DNA from: Patescibacteria group bacterium
GTDB lineage: Bacteria > Patescibacteriota > Minisyncoccia > JACQLN01
Reading direction: 5' to 3'
Length of the DNA: 64,000 nt
Assembly: GCA_038065095.1 (NCBI GenBank)
Contig: JBBTRR010000006.1
Coordinates: 20,713 to 84,712 of the forward strand
Positions within the stretch are counted from its first letter, which is position 1; every line of letters begins with the position of its first letter. Made by a program: the position numbers and the translations under genes. Under the pieces are notes generated by a model. The model ran no database searches and was not told where the DNA came from. It was given only the letters and a program-made list of their open reading frames with translations. Of this stretch, positions 1,969 through 54,905 are shown one piece after another.

Positions 1969-2712
1969 ATGTCCGAAAAAATAATAAGTGTAAAAAACTT
2001 AGGTTTTGGTTTTGGTAAAAGACAAATTCTAAAAAATGTCACCTTTGATATTACCGAGGGTGATATTTTGGCTATTATTGGCCCGAATGGCGCCGGTAAA
2101 ACAATGTTAGTGCGAAGTATTTTAGGTTTAAATGATAACTACACCGGCGATATTGTTTGGCATAAAAAACCAGAAACAGGTTATGTGCCACAAAAAATAT
2201 CTTTTGAAAAAGGTTTTCCTCTAACAGTTAAAGAATTTTTTTTGTTTGAAACAGGGAGTAATTTAAACTTTTGGTGGCCTAATAAAAAGAAAGAAGAAGA
2301 AATTAAACAAAGATTAGACGACGTAAAAATTGGCCATTTAATAAATGAAAGACTGGGCGATCTTTCCCAAGGCGAAATGCAAAGAATGTTAATTGCCAGA
2401 AGCCTGCTAGAAAACCCAAAACTTATTTTCTTTGATGAACCCGCTGCTGGCATAGATATTAGCACCGAAGAAACTGTTTATAATTTACTTTACGATTTAT
2501 ACAAGAAGCTAAATTTAACAATGGTTATGGTTTCACACGAACTTTCGGTTGTTTATAGGTTTGCCACCAAAGTTATTTGTTTAAACAAAGATTTGGTTTG
2601 CCAAGGCACACCCCAAGAAGTATTAACCCCCGAAGCTTTACAGGAAGTTTTTGGCCATCATGCTTCAGTTTATAAACATGCACATAATTTAGAACATGAT
2701 CATTCTTCCTAA
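1969..2712 (+). CDS. znuC: metal (Zn/Mn-type) ABC transporter ATP-binding protein
   Basis: Walker A GPNGAGKT, signature LSQGEMQRM, Walker B LIFFDEP. ZnuC/MntB-like length. Confidence 0.8.
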   Translation: MSEKIISVKNLGFGFGKRQILKNVTFDITEGDILAIIGPNGAGKTMLVRSILGLNDNYTGDIVWHKKPETGYVPQKISFEKGFPLTVKEFFLFETGSNLNFWWPNKKKEEEIKQRLDDVKIGHLINERLGDLSQGEMQRMLIARSLLENPKLIFFDEPAAGIDISTEETVYNLLYDLYKKLNLTMVMVSHELSVVYRFATKVICLNKDLVCQGTPQEVLTPEALQEVFGHHASVYKHAHNLEHDHSS

Positions 2713-2743
2713 TTTCTAATTACTAATATCTAATTCCTAAACA

Positions 2744-36530: not shown

Positions 36531-37013
36531 TCAGTTGATTGCACCCCAGCGAACCGTGGCAGAAATTATGAACCCCATCACGCCGATGAGAAGCCCAATC
36601 ACAGCAACAGCACCAGAAAGCCACAAGGCAAGTCGACGAAGTTTAAGCCGATCCATCTCCTCTTTCGGAAGCAAGGTGATGAAAAATACGGTCATCGCAA
36701 GCGGGATAACAAATAGGAAAATATGCTCCTTAGTTTCCATGATAATATTGTGTACCCACGGCGCAACACCACTTTTGATTACCGGCTTCACAAGCGTCCC
36801 ATAGTAAGCGACATAGTAGTAACCGCCAGCAAGCCAGCTTGCAATAAAAGCGACAGTACCTATTGCCGCAGTGATAACCATACTCCTCTGCGAGTTCCCA
36901 TCGCCTTTTAATTTTCCCAACAGCCACAAGAACGCGTCAATACCAATAATACCAAAGCCAAGGTGAAGGCCGATAAGAACAGGTTTACTTTGTAGTATAG
37001 CGACAATATCCAT
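36531..37013 (-). CDS. hypothetical membrane protein
   Basis: Four or five TM helices. No motif recognised. Confidence 0.45.
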   Translation of the reverse strand: MDIVAILQSKPVLIGLHLGFGIIGIDAFLWLLGKLKGDGNSQRSMVITAAIGTVAFIASWLAGGYYYVAYYGTLVKPVIKSGVAPWVHNIIMETKEHIFLFVIPLAMTVFFITLLPKEEMDRLKLRRLALWLSGAVAVIGLLIGVMGFIISATVRWGAIN

Positions 37014-43631: not shown

Positions 43632-44729
43632 TCACATTACCTTTTCCAAAAACTCAATAATCTTTCTTTCCGTATGCCAATCATCTGGCAGAGGAAAAGC
43701 TTTCTCCTGCTGGCGACAGCACCTATCTTGACCTGCCGAAGTTAATAGGAATTGGATAGCATCAGCTAGTTGATCACGACTACTGGCTTTGACAGCCCCA
43801 CCAAGTTCAGCAACAAACCAAGTTTCACCACCTGTTTGAATCTTCACACGAGCCCGAACACCTTCGTCGTTAAGGTAAATACCCGGCACACGGGCATAAG
43901 CACCAGCAATGGAAATATTCGTACCACTGGCGTAAATCATTACATCAGCCGAGCCCGCAATCCGCGCACCTTTCCAAATCTTTGTATCGTTTGTATTAGC
44001 AACCCAGATATCTTCCAATATTTTAGAACGTTCAACGAAGAGTTGAGTGAAACGCTCTTCATCACCGGGTTTATTGGGATCAGGCCTTTCGCCGGGGTGT
44101 TTGCCGACCACTAGCACGATACCCCTTGCATCCATACCAGCGAGAGCTTCCTTGACCACTTTGATGATGCGGTTGTTTTCCTCGGGCTCTTTGCCTAAAA
44201 TCAAGCCGACAGACCGGTCATTCTTGCTCAAACCGATTTCTGTGCTGACTCCAGAGATCTCCACTAATTTCTTCCGCCGTGGCCAGTTTTCGGCCTTGGC
44301 TTGCATCAGCGACTCATATTCTAACCTCCATTGCGGTGGTGGACCAAGATACACAGTCCCATCATATCCAAATTCTTTTGCGGCTTCAGATCCAGAAGGA
44401 TGAGCTAGAAAAACCAACTTGGCCCGATAAGCCCAATAATCCTTGGCCTTGGGTCGGAGACAAGCGCCGGGTACATCTTCAAACACAAACCATGGTGTTT
44501 GAAATTTGAGACAAAAATCCGCAAACTCCAACTCCTGTTCCGTTTCAAAACTGGAAAGGCCAGTAACCATAGCATCCAAATCTATTAGTTCTTGTCCTCT
44601 CTCTTTGGCCAAACCACGAACCTGTTTGGGGAATAGGGTCACTTCGTGACCCCTAGTTTCAGCCTCTTTGGCAAGCAACGCCATAGCATCGCCTCCAGCA
44701 TTATCAAAGCAGAAAAATCCGATCTTCAT
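43632..44729 (-). CDS. GT-B fold glycosyltransferase-like protein, anomalously GC-rich
   Basis: MKIGFFCFDNAGGDAMALLAKEAETRGHEV resembles the GT-B N-terminal glycine-rich loop. C-terminal ASGTN...RVPGIYL. R/G/A-rich composition unlike neighbours. Confidence 0.45.
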   Translation of the reverse strand: MKIGFFCFDNAGGDAMALLAKEAETRGHEVTLFPKQVRGLAKERGQELIDLDAMVTGLSSFETEQELEFADFCLKFQTPWFVFEDVPGACLRPKAKDYWAYRAKLVFLAHPSGSEAAKEFGYDGTVYLGPPPQWRLEYESLMQAKAENWPRRKKLVEISGVSTEIGLSKNDRSVGLILGKEPEENNRIIKVVKEALAGMDARGIVLVVGKHPGERPDPNKPGDEERFTQLFVERSKILEDIWVANTNDTKIWKGARIAGSADVMIYASGTNISIAGAYARVPGIYLNDEGVRARVKIQTGGETWFVAELGGAVKASSRDQLADAIQFLLTSAGQDRCCRQQEKAFPLPDDWHTERKIIEFLEKVM

Positions 44730-47930: not shown

Positions 47931-48179
47931 ATGCTAGCCAAAAAAACTACAATTGATGACCTAGCCAGAATGGTAGCTCGCGGGTTTAATAATGTTGAAA
48001 GTAAAATGGCTACCAAAGAACAACTTGAGAATGTTGAAAAACGTCTTGATGTAAGATTAACCAATGTAGAAAATAAATTAGATAATATAGAAAAAATAAT
48101 TCTTAAACAGCAAGGTGAGCATATTAAAAATCTCGATAAAAGAATAACTCATCTAGAAGAAATGTTCGCGGTAAAATAG
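47931..48179 (+). CDS. small coiled-coil protein
   Basis: 82 aa, heptad-like. Followed by two tandem terminators. Confidence 0.4.
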   Translation: MLAKKTTIDDLARMVARGFNNVESKMATKEQLENVEKRLDVRLTNVENKLDNIEKIILKQQGEHIKNLDKRITHLEEMFAVK

Positions 48180-48594: not shown

Positions 48595-49944
48595 ATGCTG
48601 TCAAATAGTAAAAAACTAGCCAAATTACCCGCTTCAGCAGGGGTGTATTTCTTTAAGGATAAAGACGGAAAGACAATATACATAGGTAAATCGGGTAATC
48701 TAAAAAATCGTGTTAAAAGCTACTTTAGTAAAGGAGTTAAGTTTTTTAGTCCAGCTAAAGTCAAAATGCTAGCTGAAATTACTGACTTTGAAATTTTAAA
48801 AACAGAATCTGAAATTGAAGCGCTCATAAAAGAATCAGAACTTATTAAAAAACATAAACCCAAGTTTAATGTTTTAATGCGCGACAGTAAAAATTATCTA
48901 TATGTTGCTTTTACCCGCGAAGAATTCCCTAAGATAATTCTGACCCATCAACCTAGTGGCTATACATCATCGAGCCTGAAGGCTCCTCAGAGCCTGAACG
49001 GCCTAGTGGCTAAAAACTATCTCGGCCCCTTTACCGATGGCACCGCCGTTAGAAAAACTTTGCACATTTTACGAGATATTTTCCCTTATTGCACCTGCCA
49101 ACAAAAACACGAAACTAAATGCTTAAATGCTCATATGGGTAAGTGTTTAACTTTCTGCTGTCTTAAAGAATCCTCCAAGATATACCGAATTTACGATCGT
49201 AAATTCGGTATACGGGGGCAATATCAAAAAAATATTAGAGCCATAAAGTCTGTGCTAATTGGCCGAAGCCGAGTTTTGCTTAAAGAACTTAAAAAAGAAA
49301 TTAAACAAGCTATAAAAAATCAAAATTTTGAATTAGCTAAAACAATTAAAAATCAAATAATAAATTTGGATTCGGTTTTAAAACACGCCCATGTTTTAAC
49401 CGAAAAATTTGAATTTTCTTCCCCATCTATATTTAAAGATACTTTGCCAGATTTTACGTTGCTGGGTTTTAAAAATAACCCAAAACGAATAGAAACTTAC
49501 GATATTTCTAATTTCCATGGCGCGGAAGCCGTGGGTTCTATGGTTGTTTTTGAACTTCAAGAAAATGGACAATATAAAGCCAATAAAAACGAATATAGAA
49601 AATTTAAAATTAAAACTGTTTCGGGCATAAACGATCCCGCTATGATGGCAGAAATTATTAAACGCCGTTTAAATAATAATTGGCCACTGCCACAATTGAT
49701 AATTGTAGATGGCGGACGAACACAGTTGAATGCGGCATTAGAAATATTACAAAAAACAAATATTCGTGTAGTTTCTTTGGCTAAAAAATTAGAAGAAATA
49801 TATTTACCCGAAAACAAGGAACCAATCCTTGCTCAAAAATTTGGCCGAAGCTTAAAATATCTTTTTCAAGCGATACGCGATGAAGCGCATAGATTTGCTA
49901 TTAGCTATCATAGAAAACTGCATCGCCAAGCTATTTCTAAATAA
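48595..49944 (+). CDS. uvrC: excinuclease ABC subunit C, short form
   Basis: GIY-YIG AGVYFFKDKDGKTIYIGKSGNLKNRVKSYF. UVR-like FELAKTIKNQI. RNase H-like nuclease domain (DISNFHG, IVDGGRTQL). No C-terminal (HhH)2. Confidence 0.85.
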   Translation: MLSNSKKLAKLPASAGVYFFKDKDGKTIYIGKSGNLKNRVKSYFSKGVKFFSPAKVKMLAEITDFEILKTESEIEALIKESELIKKHKPKFNVLMRDSKNYLYVAFTREEFPKIILTHQPSGYTSSSLKAPQSLNGLVAKNYLGPFTDGTAVRKTLHILRDIFPYCTCQQKHETKCLNAHMGKCLTFCCLKESSKIYRIYDRKFGIRGQYQKNIRAIKSVLIGRSRVLLKELKKEIKQAIKNQNFELAKTIKNQIINLDSVLKHAHVLTEKFEFSSPSIFKDTLPDFTLLGFKNNPKRIETYDISNFHGAEAVGSMVVFELQENGQYKANKNEYRKFKIKTVSGINDPAMMAEIIKRRLNNNWPLPQLIIVDGGRTQLNAALEILQKTNIRVVSLAKKLEEIYLPENKEPILAQKFGRSLKYLFQAIRDEAHRFAISYHRKLHRQAISK

Positions 49945-49947
49945 TAC

Positions 49948-49976
49948 TTGACAACTTAACAATAAAAGATTTTAAT
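49948..49976 (+). promoter_or_regulatory. sigma70-like promoter
   Basis: TTGACA, 17-nt spacer, TTTAAT. Confidence 0.5.
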
Positions 49977-49989
49977 TATAGTATTAGTA

Positions 49990-50232
49990 CCTTAAACTGC
50001 TTATCCTCATGAAAAATGAGGGCTGACAACCAAAAGCGTATGTATTACGTAGACGGAACGGATAAAGTAGACCTCCCCTCTGCTCTATTCCGTGGTCAGC
50101 CCTCTTTACAAAAAACGGGGAGATATTAAAAGATAAAGAAAGGAGTTTTTTAAGGTCAACAGACAAAACGAATTTCATCCCACTAAGTGGGCAAGCAAAA
50201 ACATATTTCCAATATCTGGGGAGAAATTGGAA
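49990..50232 (+). promoter_or_regulatory. structured 5' leader with mutually exclusive helices (candidate riboswitch or attenuator)
   Basis: Local hairpin cctcat-gaaaa-atgagg (50005-50021) competes with the 10-bp long-range pairing gagggctgac (50018-27) and gtcagccctc (50094-50103). Further hairpins before SD GGGGAGA. Confidence 0.45.
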
Positions 50233-50604
50233 ATGCAAACGACCAGAGAAGCTCCAGACCTAAGCAAGGTAGTGTTGCCAGAAGGATATAGAGTCGTCGG
50301 CTACTTCAAGAATGGAGCCGAGCACCTACTCCTTTCCACGAGGCATGGGCTCATAGGGTGTCTAAAAAAGAAGGATGACACCCTTGGGAGGGAGGTCAAG
50401 GTGGCAACTTCCAGAGAGTTTGTCGATACTAGGAAGTCTCGCCACACCAACTTCTTCCTCTGCCTCGCCAGCGATCCGGGCAACCAAGAAAAAGGTCTGG
50501 ATCTGGTGTACCAGTCAGACAGAGAGTTGGCCAGATCCAAGTTCACTCTTGTCTGTTCTGGATCATCATATGTAAGGGTCATGAGCGCACAAAACGCTTC
50601 ATGA
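50233..50604 (+). CDS. hypothetical small protein, GC-richer
   Basis: ATG at 50233 with SD GGGGAGA. 123 aa. Strong terminator downstream. Confidence 0.45.
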   Translation: MQTTREAPDLSKVVLPEGYRVVGYFKNGAEHLLLSTRHGLIGCLKKKDDTLGREVKVATSREFVDTRKSRHTNFFLCLASDPGNQEKGLDLVYQSDRELARSKFTLVCSGSSYVRVMSAQNAS

Positions 50605-50611
50605 TCAACGT

Positions 50612-50650
50612 GCCGGCAGCTTAAAACAAAGCTGCCGGTCTTTTATTTTT
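50612..50650 (+). terminator. intrinsic terminator
   Basis: ccggcagctt-aaaacaa-agctgccgg then TCTTTTATTTTTT. Confidence 0.8.
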
Positions 50651-50830
50651 TTAAATTGACTTATCTAATCAAAATTGCTAGCATTATTGTGTACTGAAAA
50701 AATCTCTTTTTACTTAATAGATACTCTATGTATGACCCTAAAAGGGTGAGGTTTTTAATTGTCCCATTTTAGAAACAGCCCGCTCTAGGTCATTTGGGCG
50801 CGCGAAGCGCGGGCGGGGTTTCTAACGGGA

Positions 50831-51049
50831 TTGCTTAATATGATAATAAACATAATACAAATAGTTTTAGCTGTCTTGTTGGTAATTACTGTGTTGCTAC
50901 AACAACAAGGTTCTGGTTTATCTGGCGCCTTTGGCGGTGAAGGAGAATTTCATCATACTAAAAGAGGTGCCGAAAAATATCTTTTCGTAGCTACGATTGT
51001 TTTGTCTGTTCTATTCTTTGGAACTGCCTTGGCTAATATAGTTTTCTAA
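50831..51049 (+). CDS. secG: preprotein translocase subunit SecG
   Basis: 72 aa. TM, LLQQQGSGLSGAFGG, second TM, as in SecG. Confidence 0.8.
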   Translation: MLNMIINIIQIVLAVLLVITVLLQQQGSGLSGAFGGEGEFHHTKRGAEKYLFVATIVLSVLFFGTALANIVF

Positions 51050-51077
51050 ATATATCTCGCGATCCGAGATAACTTAT

Positions 51078-52823
51078 TTGAAAGTGAAGGAAAAAATTAA
51101 CAAAATTTGGAAACGCATAAAGTTTATGCGTTCGTTATCTATAAAACACTGGCGTTATTTGCTTAGACAACTAAGCAAGAAAGAAATAAACGCTATTTTA
51201 GTTTTTCTTGGATTAGCCATCACCTCATCTTTATTTTTAGGTGTTTATGATTATTGGTTTTTAAGAACTTCGGTCGCATCCTCTGGTGGAACATATTCCG
51301 AAGGTGTTATTGGCGAACCTCGTTATATAAACCCCGCTTTAGCTTCGGCTAGCGAAGTTGACCGCGACCTAACTACACTTATTTTTTCTGGCTTAGTTAA
51401 ACACAATGAACTTGGAAATATTATTCCAGATCTAGCCGAAAGTTATCAAATAAGAGATAACGGAAAAACTTATGAATTTAAACTTAAAGAAAATTTAAGC
51501 TGGCCCGACAAAAAGCCATTAACTAGTGATGATGTAATTTTCACAATAAACTTAATTAAAGATTCTAAATTTCAAAGCCCGCTACGCAACAACTGGCAAG
51601 GTGTAAGAATAGAAAAAATTGATGAGCTTAGATTTGTAATAAAATTGCCGGTAGCCTATGAACCTTTTTTAGAAAATGCTACCCTAGGAATTTTACCTCA
51701 ACATATTTGGGAAAATGTTCAACCACAAAACTTTCTATTAACTCAACTTAACTTAAAACCAATAGGTTTTGGTCAATATCAAGTTACAAAAATAACCAAG
51801 AATGCTTCTGGAGTTATAAAGTCTATGGAATTTTCTCCCAATCCGCGCTATTATGAAAAAGCAAATATATCTCTTTTAAGAATTCGTTTCTATGAAAACC
51901 AAGAAGATTTGGTTAATGCTTTTAAGCGCCGAGAGATTGATGGTTTTTCTTTAAGCTCAGTTTTAGATAAAATAGAACTTAAAAAATCTAGAGATCTTGT
52001 TTTTTACGACATTAAGTTGCCTAGGTATTATGGAGTATTTTTTAATCAAACAAGATCCGATGTCTTAGCCGAGCTTGATGTAAGAAAAGCTTTATCTTAT
52101 GCCACAGATAAAGAAACACTAATAAAGGATATTTTAAAATCTGAAGCTCAAACTCAAAAAGGACCATTGCCTTTTGGGCTTTTGAATATAGGTATACCGG
52201 AAATAAACTATAATTTTGATATTGAAACTGCTAAAAACATACTAGATAAATCTGGCTGGAAGATTGGGGAAAACGGCATAAGAGAAAAAAAATTAAAAGG
52301 TAAAACAACAAAATTAGAATTTGCGCTTACTACTACGGATTGGCCGGAACATACGCAAGTTGCCAGTAATTTAAAACAAAACTGGGAAAAGATAGGCGCA
52401 AAAATAGATTTAGATGTTGTGCCAGTTAACGGCATTCAAACCCAAAACATAAGACCACGCCAGTACCAAGCCCTACTTTTTGGAGAAGTTTTAAGCTTAA
52501 ACCCAGACCCATTTTCTTTTTGGCATTCCACACAAAGAAGAGATCCTGGTTTGAATTTAGCATTATATAACAACAAAAAAGTTGACGGACTTTTAGAATC
52601 AGCTCGCCAAGAAAACGACCCCAACAAAAGAATAAAATCTTACGAAGCCTTCCAAAAAATAATAATGCAAGACATCCCAGCCATATTCCTTTATAGCCCA
52701 AATTATATTTATGCTGTATCTGGAAAAATTAAAGGTATTAACACCAAAGCTATTAACACTCCATCGCAAAGATTTGAAAATATAAACAAATGGCATACCG
52801 CCACCAAGAGAGTAAAAAAATAA
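51078..52823 (+). CDS. ABC transporter substrate-binding protein, family 5 (OppA/DppA-like)
   Basis: N-terminal anchor. SBP_bac_5 architecture and length. Start may be at 51126. Confidence 0.75.
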   Translation: MKVKEKINKIWKRIKFMRSLSIKHWRYLLRQLSKKEINAILVFLGLAITSSLFLGVYDYWFLRTSVASSGGTYSEGVIGEPRYINPALASASEVDRDLTTLIFSGLVKHNELGNIIPDLAESYQIRDNGKTYEFKLKENLSWPDKKPLTSDDVIFTINLIKDSKFQSPLRNNWQGVRIEKIDELRFVIKLPVAYEPFLENATLGILPQHIWENVQPQNFLLTQLNLKPIGFGQYQVTKITKNASGVIKSMEFSPNPRYYEKANISLLRIRFYENQEDLVNAFKRREIDGFSLSSVLDKIELKKSRDLVFYDIKLPRYYGVFFNQTRSDVLAELDVRKALSYATDKETLIKDILKSEAQTQKGPLPFGLLNIGIPEINYNFDIETAKNILDKSGWKIGENGIREKKLKGKTTKLEFALTTTDWPEHTQVASNLKQNWEKIGAKIDLDVVPVNGIQTQNIRPRQYQALLFGEVLSLNPDPFSFWHSTQRRDPGLNLALYNNKKVDGLLESARQENDPNKRIKSYEAFQKIIMQDIPAIFLYSPNYIYAVSGKIKGINTKAINTPSQRFENINKWHTATKRVKK

Positions 52824-52830
52824 AGCTCTC

Positions 52831-52915
52831 GGGGATGTGGTGAAATTGGCAGACACGCAGCGTTCAGGTCGCTGTGAGCGCAAGCTCTTGGGAGTTCAAA
52901 TCTCCCCATCCCCAC
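52831..52915 (+). tRNA. tRNA-Leu(CAG)
   Basis: ggggatg acceptor, D-arm GGTGAAATTGGCAG, anticodon loop TTCAGGT, long variable arm, T-arm GGGAGTTCAAATCTCCC. Confidence 0.85.
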
Positions 52916-53009
52916 CTTCAAAATAAAAAATTAAAGATTAAAAATTAAAGTTTTTTAATTTTGAATTTAAATTTTACATTTTGAATTTTAACTTTTAAAT
53001 TTATTAAAT

Positions 53010-54905
53010 ATGAATCAACCATACAGACCACATAGTGGCGATAGACAAAATAATAGACAAGGTAACAGACACAGCGGTCGACCATCCAATTCGGGAAAAT
53101 TATTTTTTAGATCATCAACTAATCAAGATAACGAAAACCCTCGCGGACCAAGAAACCTTAGGGGTAATTTTGTTCCAAAAACTAACGAAGAATACCAGGA
53201 CACAGGCCCTAAAGTACCTCAACAGAATTGCTTACGTATTATTCCTTTGGGTGGCTTAGGCGAAGTTGGTCGCAATATGACAGTTATAGAATGGCGTGAT
53301 TACGACAAAGACGATCGCGATATTTTACTTATTGATGCTGGCGTAAGATTTCCCGAAGAAGACATGCCTGGTATTGATTTGCTAATTCCAAACATAAAAT
53401 ATTTAGAAGATAAAACCGACAAAATTAGCGGACTAGTATTTACACATGGTCACTTCGACCATATCGGCGCCTTGCCTTATATGCTTGAACAAATTGGTAA
53501 CCCAATGATTTATGCCGCTCCATTAACTAAGGGTTTGATTATAAAACGCCACGAAGAGTTTAAACAACTACCCAAGTTAATGATAGACGAAATTAGAAAT
53601 GGTGATAAAAGAAAGATTGGCGTTTTTGAAGTTGAATTTATTCACATCAATCATAGTATTCCCGACGATATGGCTTTGCTTATTAAAACTCCAGCGGGCA
53701 ATATTATGTGCACTTCCGATTTTAAATTTGATCATAACCCTGTTATAGATAAGCCCGCCGAAATTGAACGCTTAAAGAAAATTGGTGACGACGGTTTACT
53801 TTTAGTAATGAGCGATAGCACTGGTGCCGAAGAACCAGGCCACTCTATTTCTGAATCCGACATTCAAGCCAACCTAGAAAAACTTATTCAAGATGCTCCA
53901 GGGCGAGTTATTGTGGGTATGTTTGCTTCGGCTATTAATCGTGTTCAACAAATTATTGCTATTTCCGAAAAATTTAATCGCAAGGTTGTAGTGGAAGGTT
54001 TTAGTATGAAAGCTGCAGTAGAAGTTTCTAAAGTTTTGGGCTACATCAAAACCAAAAAAGGAACTTTAATTTCGGCTTCCGAAAGCAATAAATATCCAGA
54101 TAGCAAAATAACTATTTTAGGCACTGGTGGCCAAGGCGAAGAAAACGCTGTTTTAATGAGATTAGCCACCCACCGCCATAAACAATTAGAACTTAAAAAA
54201 GGAGATACCATTATATTCTCTTCTTCTATTATTCCGGGCAACGAAAGAACCATTCAACAATTAAAAGATAATTTATTGCGTCACGGCGTAAAAGTTTATA
54301 ACTACCGAATGTTAGACATTCATGCTGGCGGACACGGCCATCAAGAGGATTTAATGTATATGTTGGAACTTGTTAGACCAAAATTTTTAATGCCAGTACA
54401 CGGCCAACTTTCAATGTTGTTTGCTATGAAAGACCTTGGCATACGTTTTGGTATGAAAGAAGAAAATATTGTTGTGGTTGAAAACGGTAATGTGGTTAGA
54501 GTAACCGCCGATCAAATTTCTGTAGATAAAAAACCAGTGCCAGCCGAAATGGTTATGGTAGATGGGCTTGGTGTGGGCGATGTAGGTTCGGTAGTGCTTC
54601 GCGACCGCCAAATGTTAGCCGAAGATGGCATGTTTATGGTGGTAGCTGTGGTAGATTCTAAAACCGGCCGAGTGCGCGGTAGCCCAGATATTATTTCCCG
54701 TGGATTTATTTATTTACGCGACAACAAACAAATGCTGTTAGACGCTAGAATGATAATTAGAAAAGTTATAGAAGGGGCTACTGGCGGTGAACATCCATTT
54801 AACGATGCGTTGGTTAAAGATGAAATTAGAGAACGCTTAGGCCAATTCTTATTCCAAAAAACTCATAGACGACCAATGATTCTGCCAGTGTTGATTCAGG
54901 TGTAG
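53010..54905 (+). CDS. rnj: ribonuclease J with about 70-aa R/N/G-rich N-terminal extension
   Basis: HGHFDHIGALPY (MBL HxHxDH). Beta-CASP and C-terminal domain. 631 aa. Confidence 0.88.
   Translation: MNQPYRPHSGDRQNNRQGNRHSGRPSNSGKLFFRSSTNQDNENPRGPRNLRGNFVPKTNEEYQDTGPKVPQQNCLRIIPLGGLGEVGRNMTVIEWRDYDKDDRDILLIDAGVRFPEEDMPGIDLLIPNIKYLEDKTDKISGLVFTHGHFDHIGALPYMLEQIGNPMIYAAPLTKGLIIKRHEEFKQLPKLMIDEIRNGDKRKIGVFEVEFIHINHSIPDDMALLIKTPAGNIMCTSDFKFDHNPVIDKPAEIERLKKIGDDGLLLVMSDSTGAEEPGHSISESDIQANLEKLIQDAPGRVIVGMFASAINRVQQIIAISEKFNRKVVVEGFSMKAAVEVSKVLGYIKTKKGTLISASESNKYPDSKITILGTGGQGEENAVLMRLATHRHKQLELKKGDTIIFSSSIIPGNERTIQQLKDNLLRHGVKVYNYRMLDIHAGGHGHQEDLMYMLELVRPKFLMPVHGQLSMLFAMKDLGIRFGMKEENIVVVENGNVVRVTADQISVDKKPVPAEMVMVDGLGVGDVGSVVLRDRQMLAEDGMFMVVAVVDSKTGRVRGSPDIISRGFIYLRDNKQMLLDARMIIRKVIEGATGGEHPFNDALVKDEIRERLGQFLFQKTHRRPMILPVLIQV

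Follow-up and report, generated by a model that had tools for sequence, protein, structure and literature searches.

When following up the first-pass annotation of a 64-kb stretch of DNA from an uncultured groundwater bacterium (Patescibacteria), we studied the element at positions 49948 to 50650 on its plus strand. The window below means the whole 64-kb stretch, and its numbering is used throughout. The element is a self-contained unit of a promoter, a leader of about 249 nucleotides (nt), a gene for a protein of 123 amino acids (aa), here called open reading frame (ORF) X, and a terminator. The leader carries a C-rich loop, L3, whose CUCCCC is the exact complement of two GGGGAG copies in the same RNA, one being the real Shine-Dalgarno (SD) sequence of ORF X and the other, G2, an SD copy that no start codon follows. 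The leader probably governs how efficiently ORF X is translated. The reading we favor, to which we give about an even chance, is that it is a previously undescribed cis-acting RNA acting on translation initiation, and probably on how long the mRNA survives, by mimicry of the SD and anti-SD sequences.

The leader folds better than expected by chance (z = -4.1), and none of 200 dinucleotide shuffles folded as well. Fully structured leaders were found in the window, in the related loci L001, L003, L004, L006, L008, L009, and L015, and in L050 and L053, where the unit is inverted; since L006 and L008 are nearly identical, these represent nine distinct sequences. Independent minimum-free-energy (MFE) folds of the leaders from the window, L004, L009, L015, L050, and L053 yielded a common architecture, and RNAalifold on MAFFT alignments recovered helices P1, P2, P3b, P5, and P6 (Table 1). 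In the three-way-junction domain, 91% of the alignment cells are paired and 9 of the 17 pairs have changes on both sides. The domain scores 0.397 for covariation; shuffles score 0.199, none of 500 matching the domain, and slid controls score no more than 0.23. Compensatory changes in P1 include GAGGGCUGAC/GUCAGCCCUC in the window, GAGAGCUGGC/GCCAGCUCUC in L050, and GGGGCUGAGG/CCUCAGCCCC in L015. A covariance model of the junction domain (R1) picked up L009 only when its filters were turned off (E = 0.0016) and did not find L015 on the correct strand; therefore, the distant leaders were aligned by hand. No second copy of the domain was found when the window was scanned with R1. A scan of viral contigs for the pattern GGGCTGA...CTCCCC...TCAGCCC gave 31 matches, which were all negative with R1 and were discarded as chance.

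In the hairpin at the ribosome-binding site, P6, all of the alignment cells (100%) are paired, three of the eight pairs are compensatory, and the covariation score was attained by none of 500 shuffles. The SD lies in its loop, reading GGGGAG throughout, and the final base of the stem is the A of the start codon. This order of stem, GGGGAG, stem, and AUG occurs in 11 of 12 loci once L050, L053, L051, and L048 are added, on stems such as UUUCACAC/GUGUGAAA, AGAUUAUC/GAUAAUCU, GAUUGAA/UUCAAUC, and AUCGC/GCGAU. We rejected the possibility that SD-in-loop hairpins are a general habit of this genome, as such hairpins are not typical of gene starts in the window. Strong SD sites seem rare in the host genome: in a crude scan with uncurated starts, only about 9 of the 47 long ORFs of the window had GGAG or GAGG no more than 20 nt from the best candidate start. 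Between the junction and P6, a hairpin with GGAG in its loop (P4) is present in every structured leader, on unrelated stems (UUAAAAG/UUUUUAA, GAUGACC/GGUCAUC, ACCUUAAC/GUUAAGGU, AACAGCA/UGCUGUU, and CGGUGGCU/AGCCGCUG), and P5 covaries (CCCGU/GCGGG, CCCGC/GCGGG, and CCCCA/UGGGG).

L3 stays C-rich in its loop while the stem beneath it changes. It reads CUCCCC in the window, L001, L003, L004, L006, L008, L009, and L015, UCCUCCCC in L053, and GCCCCCA in L050. Its predicted unpaired probability is about 1.0, that of the SD loop is 0.67 to 1.0, and both GGGGAG copies are predicted to be single stranded. The computed energy of the CUCCCC/GGGGAG duplex is -10.3 kcal/mol (-13.0 kcal/mol with flanking bases), compared to -6.3 kcal/mol (-7.8 kcal/mol with flanking bases) for the canonical 16S rRNA tail on the same SD, a tail that may differ from the host's. 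In the window group, G2 and the SD are equal partners for L3 (-13.2 versus -13.0 kcal/mol). In L050, G2 is the better partner; here L3 and G2 changed together (GCCCCC with GGGGGC, -15.2 kcal/mol), and the SD stayed GGGGAG (-9.6 kcal/mol). The SD is the better partner in L009, where the complementarity is extended to 8 base pairs (bp), and also in L053 (extended to 7 bp) and L015 (6 bp), from both of which G2 is missing. Thus, across the leader groups, L3 always has a GGGGAG-type partner, either the decoy G2 or the real SD.

In the mechanism we favor, pairing of L3 with the decoy would leave the SD free and translation on. A kissing interaction of L3 with the SD loop, stronger than the pairing of the SD with 16S rRNA, would turn translation off. 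How L3 is partitioned between the two would depend on the way the junction folds or on a factor that binds there. The decoy SD-like sequences may also, or instead, recruit the 30S ribosomal subunit and keep RNase J off the 5' end, as a STAB-SD (stabilizing SD) does. Besides the conservation of the unit at the uvrC/secG locus and the covariation of the SD hairpin and the junction, we count in favor of SD mimicry the joint change of L3 and G2 in L050, the extended L3-SD complementarity in L009 and L053, and the SD loop being the best partner of L3 where G2 is missing (L015 and L053). We also count the C-rich loop kept on a changing stem, the predicted single-stranded state of L3 and both GGGGAG copies with the strength of their computed duplex, the GGAG-loop hairpins with unrelated stems, the few strong SDs in the window, the presence of RNase J, the STAB-SD precedent, and the untranslated leader.

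Several observations weigh on the other side. The sample is small, with nine structured leaders from about seven lineages. Two members of the family, L048 and L055, have no junction domain, which makes this domain dispensable. G2 has three possible partners, namely, L3 (as a pseudoknot), the 5' CCUC (the outer helix of the MFE fold), and the freed CCCUC of P1, and the MFE model joins it to the 5' CCUC and not to L3. As GGGGAG and CUCCCC hardly vary, the L3-SD pairing has little covariation of its own, and the only direct covariation comes from the L050 event and from flanking pairs in L009 and L053. In L050, moreover, L3 drifted from the SD, the complementarity falling to 4 to 5 bp (-9.6 kcal/mol), which favors a purely structural L3-G2 pseudoknot.

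A ligand could be what decides whether L3 is available to sequester the SD, the junction and a loop-tail pseudoknot then forming the aptamer of a metabolite or ion riboswitch. The leader has a complex junction supported by covariation, a possible pseudoknot, near-isoenergetic alternative folds in the window subgroup, and, as in translational riboswitches, a 5'-leader position and an SD-complementary element. However, no conserved unpaired junction pocket was found. The junction strands differ between subgroups, J1/2 being AACCAAAA, CAUU, ACCCGAUGU, or UUUUCC, and the invariant unpaired elements are the mutually complementary CUCCCC and GGGGAG. The leader occurs only in front of one hypervariable orphan family, which has no domain match and no sign of a metabolic or transport role; L048 and L055 have lost the junction domain, and the alternative hairpin is not family-wide. 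An Rfam 15 scan of the window at gathering thresholds reported two tRNAs only, and a permissive scan of 49700 to 51100 at E values up to 10 gave only chance matches to eukaryotic small nucleolar RNA and long noncoding RNA models. Neither ARAGORN nor Rfam found a transfer-messenger RNA, RNase P, or another known RNA. We consider a riboswitch quite unlikely. As in the pseudoknot riboswitches that bury the SD (SAM-II, preQ1-II, and guanidine-III), a purine-rich, SD-type sequence lying 3' to the closing helix can pair with a loop. Unlike in those, the leader has no Rfam match and no conserved ligand pocket, it stands before an orphan gene, and the partner next to the junction is a decoy, the real SD lying about 100 nt downstream in a hairpin of its own. 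The leader also differs from RNA thermometers of the ROSE and fourU types, in which the SD is paired in a weak stem, since here the loop holds the SD, and of the AUG only the A belongs to the stem.

The alternative fold lies at the 5' side of the junction. The 3' strand of a local hairpin, P0, overlaps P1 by 4 nt (GAGG), so that the two helices are partly exclusive. P0 persists in L001 and L004 and gains a G-U pair (a paired insertion) in L003. It shrinks to 4 bp in L006 and L008 and gives way to CCCC/GGGG in L009; L015 and L053 lack it, and in L050 it does not overlap P1. A fold forced to contain P0 is 0 to 1.8 kcal/mol less stable than the MFE fold in the window, L001, L003, L004, and L008, and two states are plausible for the window subgroup in this folding model. 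The competition between P0 and P1 is absent in L015, L053, and L050 and is confined to the window subgroup (with an analogue in L009); the proposed switch is thus not a feature of the family. A choice of L3 between G2 and the SD could be another pair of mutually exclusive states.

No terminator-like hairpin with a U tract was found between 49985 and 50233, and the leader is therefore not a transcription attenuator. That reading, or that of a separate small RNA gene merely upstream of ORF X, might draw on the length of the leader and on the alternative helices of the window subgroup. The 3' strand of the helix, however, is followed by UUUACAAAAAA and not by a U tract, and no second promoter precedes the ORF. 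A mini-ORF within P0, AUGAAAAAUGAGGGCUGA (MKNEG), lacks an SD; it reads MKIEG in L003 and L006, is absent in L009, L015, and L053, and is not conserved as a leader peptide would be. We regard both versions as very improbable indeed. The first-pass annotation had seen in the leader mutually exclusive helices with the architecture of a riboswitch or attenuator. The exclusivity holds through the shared GAGG and the nearly equal energies of the two states in the window subgroup, which the fold comparison under constraint suggested in that annotation bore out; it does not extend to the family. The suggested search for covariation likewise supported P1, and the competing P0 is not conserved across the family. 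The attenuator architecture fell with the missing terminator. The riboswitch architecture is weakened by junction nucleotides that are not conserved in distant relatives, by the orphan gene, and by the lack of an Rfam match, and in matching no known riboswitch class the Rfam scan agreed with the earlier inspection by eye.

GGA motifs in hairpin loops, one of them overlapping the SD, are an arrangement typical of CsrA/Rsm targets. The leader has three, AAGGAG in P4, GGGGAG in P6, and G2, of which two are in hairpin loops and one overlaps the SD. These loop motifs (P4, the SD loop, and G2) could be bound by a global RNA-binding protein like CsrA, or by ORF X in autoregulation, so as to block initiation. 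An operator of this kind would also fit the SD/AUG hairpin, which resembles phage coat-protein operators, and the constant coinheritance of leader and gene, even when inverted. However, ORF X has no recognizable RNA-binding domain and its structure model is poor, and the invariant loops accompany a protein whose identity falls below 25%, giving no sign of protein-RNA coevolution. No csrA gene was seen in the 64-kb window, where no search aimed at csrA was made, and the C-rich loop would be left unexplained. Control by a protein is, in our view, unlikely. The CsrA/RsmA leaders and the Escherichia coli rpsA leader also have several GGA-loop hairpins, one at the ribosome-binding site, and a start codon in or beside a hairpin, whereas our leader adds an anti-SD-like loop and has GGGGAG/AAGGAG loop motifs rather than the ANGGA consensus context. 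The operator of MS2-type RNA phages shares a small start-codon hairpin at the ribosome-binding site, kept by covariation; in the leader, the SD sits in the loop, and the context is chromosomal.

The 5' mRNA stabilizer of Bacillus thuringiensis cry3A, the STAB-SD, was reportedly described by Agaisse and Lereclus in 1996. In cry3A, a noninitiating SD binds the 30S subunit and blocks RNase J (PMC4113751). The leader resembles this system in having SD-like sequences (AAAGGAG in the P4 loop and GGGGAG in G2) in a long 5' untranslated region far from the start codon, with no conserved start codon downstream of them, and in belonging to an organism with the 5'-3' exonuclease RNase J, which is encoded two genes downstream by a protein matching the RNase J beta-CASP and C-terminal domains. 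It differs in that its SD-like sequences lie in or beside conserved hairpins and are joined by an anti-SD-like loop and a three-way junction. In a constitutive stabilizer or enhancer without any switch, the 5' structure and the decoys would serve only to guard the mRNA against RNase J/Y, and the SD-in-loop hairpin only to display the SD and so ease initiation on a highly expressed gene. The near-consensus promoter, the strong SD where most genes have none, RNase J, the STAB-SD precedent, the GC-rich and strongly folded transcript in all lineages, and the lack of conservation of the alternative hairpin would suit it. However, it offers no reason for keeping a loop that is an exact complement of the SD, or for the joint variation of L3 and G2, and an AUG inside an 8-bp stem should hinder, not help, initiation. 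We find this reading distinctly improbable. In all, we assign the leader to none of the STAB-SD, SD-pseudoknot riboswitch, CsrA/rpsA, and phage-operator classes. We class it as a new motif within a known general kind, narrow in distribution and linked to a new orphan protein family.

Table 1. Coordinates of the unit, its RNA elements, and neighboring features (window numbering unless a locus is named)
Feature	Position	Strand	Description
Sigma-70-type promoter	49948-49976	+	TTGACA 49948-49953, 17-nt spacer, TTTAAT 49971-49976
P0, local hairpin	50005-50021	+	CCUCAU-GAAAA-AUGAGG; CCTCAT 50005-50010 with ATGAGG 50016-50021
Mini-ORF	50010-50027		Inside P0
Three-way-junction domain	50018-50104	+	Closed by P1; short P2 hairpin; long P3 arm
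P1, long-range helix	50018-50027 with 50095-50104	+	GAGGGCTGAC with GTCAGCCCTC
P2	50036-50040 with 50046-50050	+	
P3a	50058-50062 with 50089-50093	+	
P3b	50066-50071 with 50079-50084	+	
L3	50072-50078	+	P3 loop CCUCCCC; anti-SD mimic (putative)
G2	50117-50122	+	GGGGAG, 12 nt after P1
P4 hairpin	50126-50153	+	50126-50132 with 50147-50153; loop AAAGGAG 50139-50145 (GGAG 50142-50145), STAB-SD-like
P5 hairpin	50179-50191	+	CCCAC-UAA-GUGGG (UCAUCCCAC/GUGGG); conserved UUUCAU just before
P6, SD hairpin	50206-50235	+	Stem UUUCCAAU 50206-50213 with AUUGGAAA 50226-50233, 8 bp; SD 50218-50223; ATG 50233-50235
ORF X	50233-50604	+	ATG 50233 to TGA 50604; 123 aa; GC 0.51, third-position GC 0.58
Intrinsic terminator	50612-50649	+	GCCGGCAGCUU-AAAACA-AAGCUGCCGGU, then U run; stem 50612-50639
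Inverted units	L050 822-1499; L053 1627-2330	-	Entire unit, promoter to terminator
uvrC	48595-49944		GIY-YIG, UVR, and UvrC RNase H domains
secG	ATG 50840		SecG domain
secG promoter and leader	50656-50840		TTGACT-17-TAGCAT at 50656
RNase J gene	53010-54905		
tRNA-Leu (CAG)	52831-52916		
Coiled-coil-like ORF	47931-48179; L001 709-957; L015 88-330		About 80 aa
GC-rich ORFs without Pfam match	43632-44729; 36531-37013	-	GC 0.47
MITE-like elements	L014 ~900-1090; L053 ~1435-1545; L055 ~2215-2365; L048 ~2540-2720		
N runs	L051 2209-2308; L052 2219-2308; L048 2756-2854		

The window has a GC content of 35%, its proteins bear NCBI names from a Patescibacteria metagenome-assembled genome, and an identical copy is known from Hainich groundwater. 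The promoter hexamers match the consensus at 11 of 12 positions; our promoter scan skipped them solely because it demanded an A at position 2 of the -10 hexamer. TTGACA-17-TTTAAT is unchanged in L001, L003, L004, L006, L008, and the inverted L050, and L009, L015, L053, and L055 have TTGACA-17 followed by GATAAT, GAAAAT, or AAAAAT. Transcription is predicted to start near 49984, inside the conserved AGTACCTTAA, from which the leader runs to the ATG. The terminator stem has 11 bp, including seven G-C pairs, and terminators with different stem sequences follow ORF X in L001, L003, L008, L009, L015, L050, L053, and L055. The complete transcript folds at z = -9.5 against shuffles. Relatives reached via the ORF X protein and via the neighboring secG both hold the unit of promoter, leader, ORF, and terminator at the uvrC/secG locus, and in L050 and L053 the entire unit is inverted between the two genes, which supports its description as self-contained. 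The first-pass annotation had claimed just such a unit, with this promoter, a leader of about 240 nt, a long-range helix at the place of P1, a 123-aa protein without assigned function, and a strong terminator, and each of these elements was borne out, the leader being slightly longer than proposed. The unit is thus conserved and monocistronic, and we read it as serving to express a lineage-restricted, fast-evolving small cytoplasmic protein.

The block containing ORF X is 50% GC, open on both strands, and strongly folded as RNA, and we considered whether it might be a large noncoding RNA. This was ruled out by codon-position variability, in-frame indels, and protein-level homologues. In a four-way DNA alignment, the fractions of variable columns at the three codon positions of ORF X are 0.26, 0.29, and 0.61, and indels are multiples of three; in the leader, the corresponding fractions are 0.41, 0.49, and 0.44, without codon periodicity. 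This pattern marks ORF X as a real coding gene and the leader as untranslated. Homologues with 84%, 73%, and 67% identity all occupy the position between uvrC and secG, and searching 1.84 billion representative proteins with a profile brought in three distant members (P0006 to P0008) at the same locus, the homologues as a whole being listed as P0002 to P0008. The protein profile found only three loci when run against genomes and metagenomes. Anchoring on close SecG homologues revealed more small ORFs without Pfam matches beside secG, which HMMER had missed; they align colinearly with ORF X and share the motifs NGA, G[LF], P[NDG], and SG..L..G..V[RK]V. No significant match for the family was obtained in profile searches of Pfam, NCBIfam, PHROGs, PADLOC, or PDB sequences. 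AlphaFold (AF2) models of the family are poor (predicted local distance difference test scores of 42 and 49) and consist mainly of beta strands. Judged by these sequence searches, ORF X is a new orphan protein family.

The GC content at third codon positions (GC3) of ORF X is 0.58, five standard deviations (SDev) above the mean of the 47 long ORFs in the window (0.27, SDev 0.06). In all lineages examined (the window, L001, L003, L004, L006, L008, L009, and L014/L015), the overall GC content of ORF X is about 0.50 and its GC3 is 0.50 to 0.60, versus a GC3 of 0.20 to 0.49 for its neighbors. As the high value is kept in every lineage at the syntenic locus, it is a maintained property, and recent horizontal transfer as its source was ruled out. 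The coding RNA of ORF X folds beyond shuffles in three lineages (z = -3.4, -5.1, and -2.6). Possible causes of the high GC3 and the folded coding RNA are selection on RNA structure and GC-biased gene conversion at a recombination hotspot. We also noted a predicted long-range pairing within ORF X, of ACCAGAGAAGCUCCAGACC (codons 4 to 9) with GGUCUGGAUCUGGU (the GLDLV codons), at 50242 to 50260 with 50489 to 50502. Both strands are nucleotide invariant in close homologues, wobble positions included, and the pairing recurs in the divergent cassette of L008. Two other fairly GC-rich ORFs without Pfam matches are present in the window. Upstream of the one at 43632 to 44729 are a TTGACA-17-TATATT promoter and a strong GGAGG site. 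The leader there is short, lacks structure, and does not resemble that of ORF X.

The nearly identical strains L006 and L008 differ sharply at this gene. They are 96 to 100% identical over uvrC, the leader, and secG with its own leader, but the identity is only 52 to 66% over the part that starts at about codon 4 of ORF X and takes in its terminator (L006 1510 to 1950 versus L008 2265 to 2710). This drop between conserved flanks indicates that the coding cassette was exchanged, and the breakpoints lie in the conserved SD hairpin and the secG promoter.

The flanks of the unit show further variation. The conserved secG leader contains a hairpin, ACCCTAAAAGGGT, and a GAGG. In the window, L001, and L004, a GC-rich inverted repeat of 55 to 70 nt (TCCCATTTTAGAAAC...GTTTCTAACGGGA; about 50771 to 50829 in the window) stands between this GAGG and the secG ATG; the repeat is missing from L003, L006, L008, and L009, and its tip varies among genomes. 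In several relatives, the stretch from the ORF X terminator to the secG promoter is filled by palindromic elements that resemble miniature inverted-repeat transposable elements (MITEs) and are bounded by CCCCGCACAAA...TTTGTGCGGGG. Runs of 90 to 100 N occur at the expected promoter and 5' leader domain in two Hainich contigs (L051 and L052), which hides the junction domain of that lineage, and a third contig (L048) has an N run in the secG spacer. These runs may be scaffold gaps at a strain-variable spot. Elsewhere in the window, ARAGORN predicted a tRNA-Leu, not reported by the gathering-threshold Rfam scan, just after a peptide-binding protein gene, and a conserved coiled-coil-like ORF without a Pfam match lies between uvrA and uvrC.

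Patescibacteria (Candidate Phyla Radiation) cannot be grown alone, and very little is known about their gene regulation. The locus offers a compact, testable case, in which an undescribed covarying leader carries copies of both ribosome-binding partners and precedes an orphan family whose coding cassette is exchanged and flipped while the control region is kept. At its widest, and this we think improbable, the leader would represent a new regulatory RNA class that imitates both SD and anti-SD partners, senses ribosome availability or a ligand, and drives a GC-rich hypervariable cassette swapped and inverted between strains of these ultra-small bacteria, for example, to diversify a host-interaction or defense module under a fixed control region. 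Were a ligand to bind the leader, this would be a new riboswitch class. If SD mimicry is true, it would offer a simple natural way of tuning translation in organisms most of whose genes seem to be without strong ribosome-binding sites.

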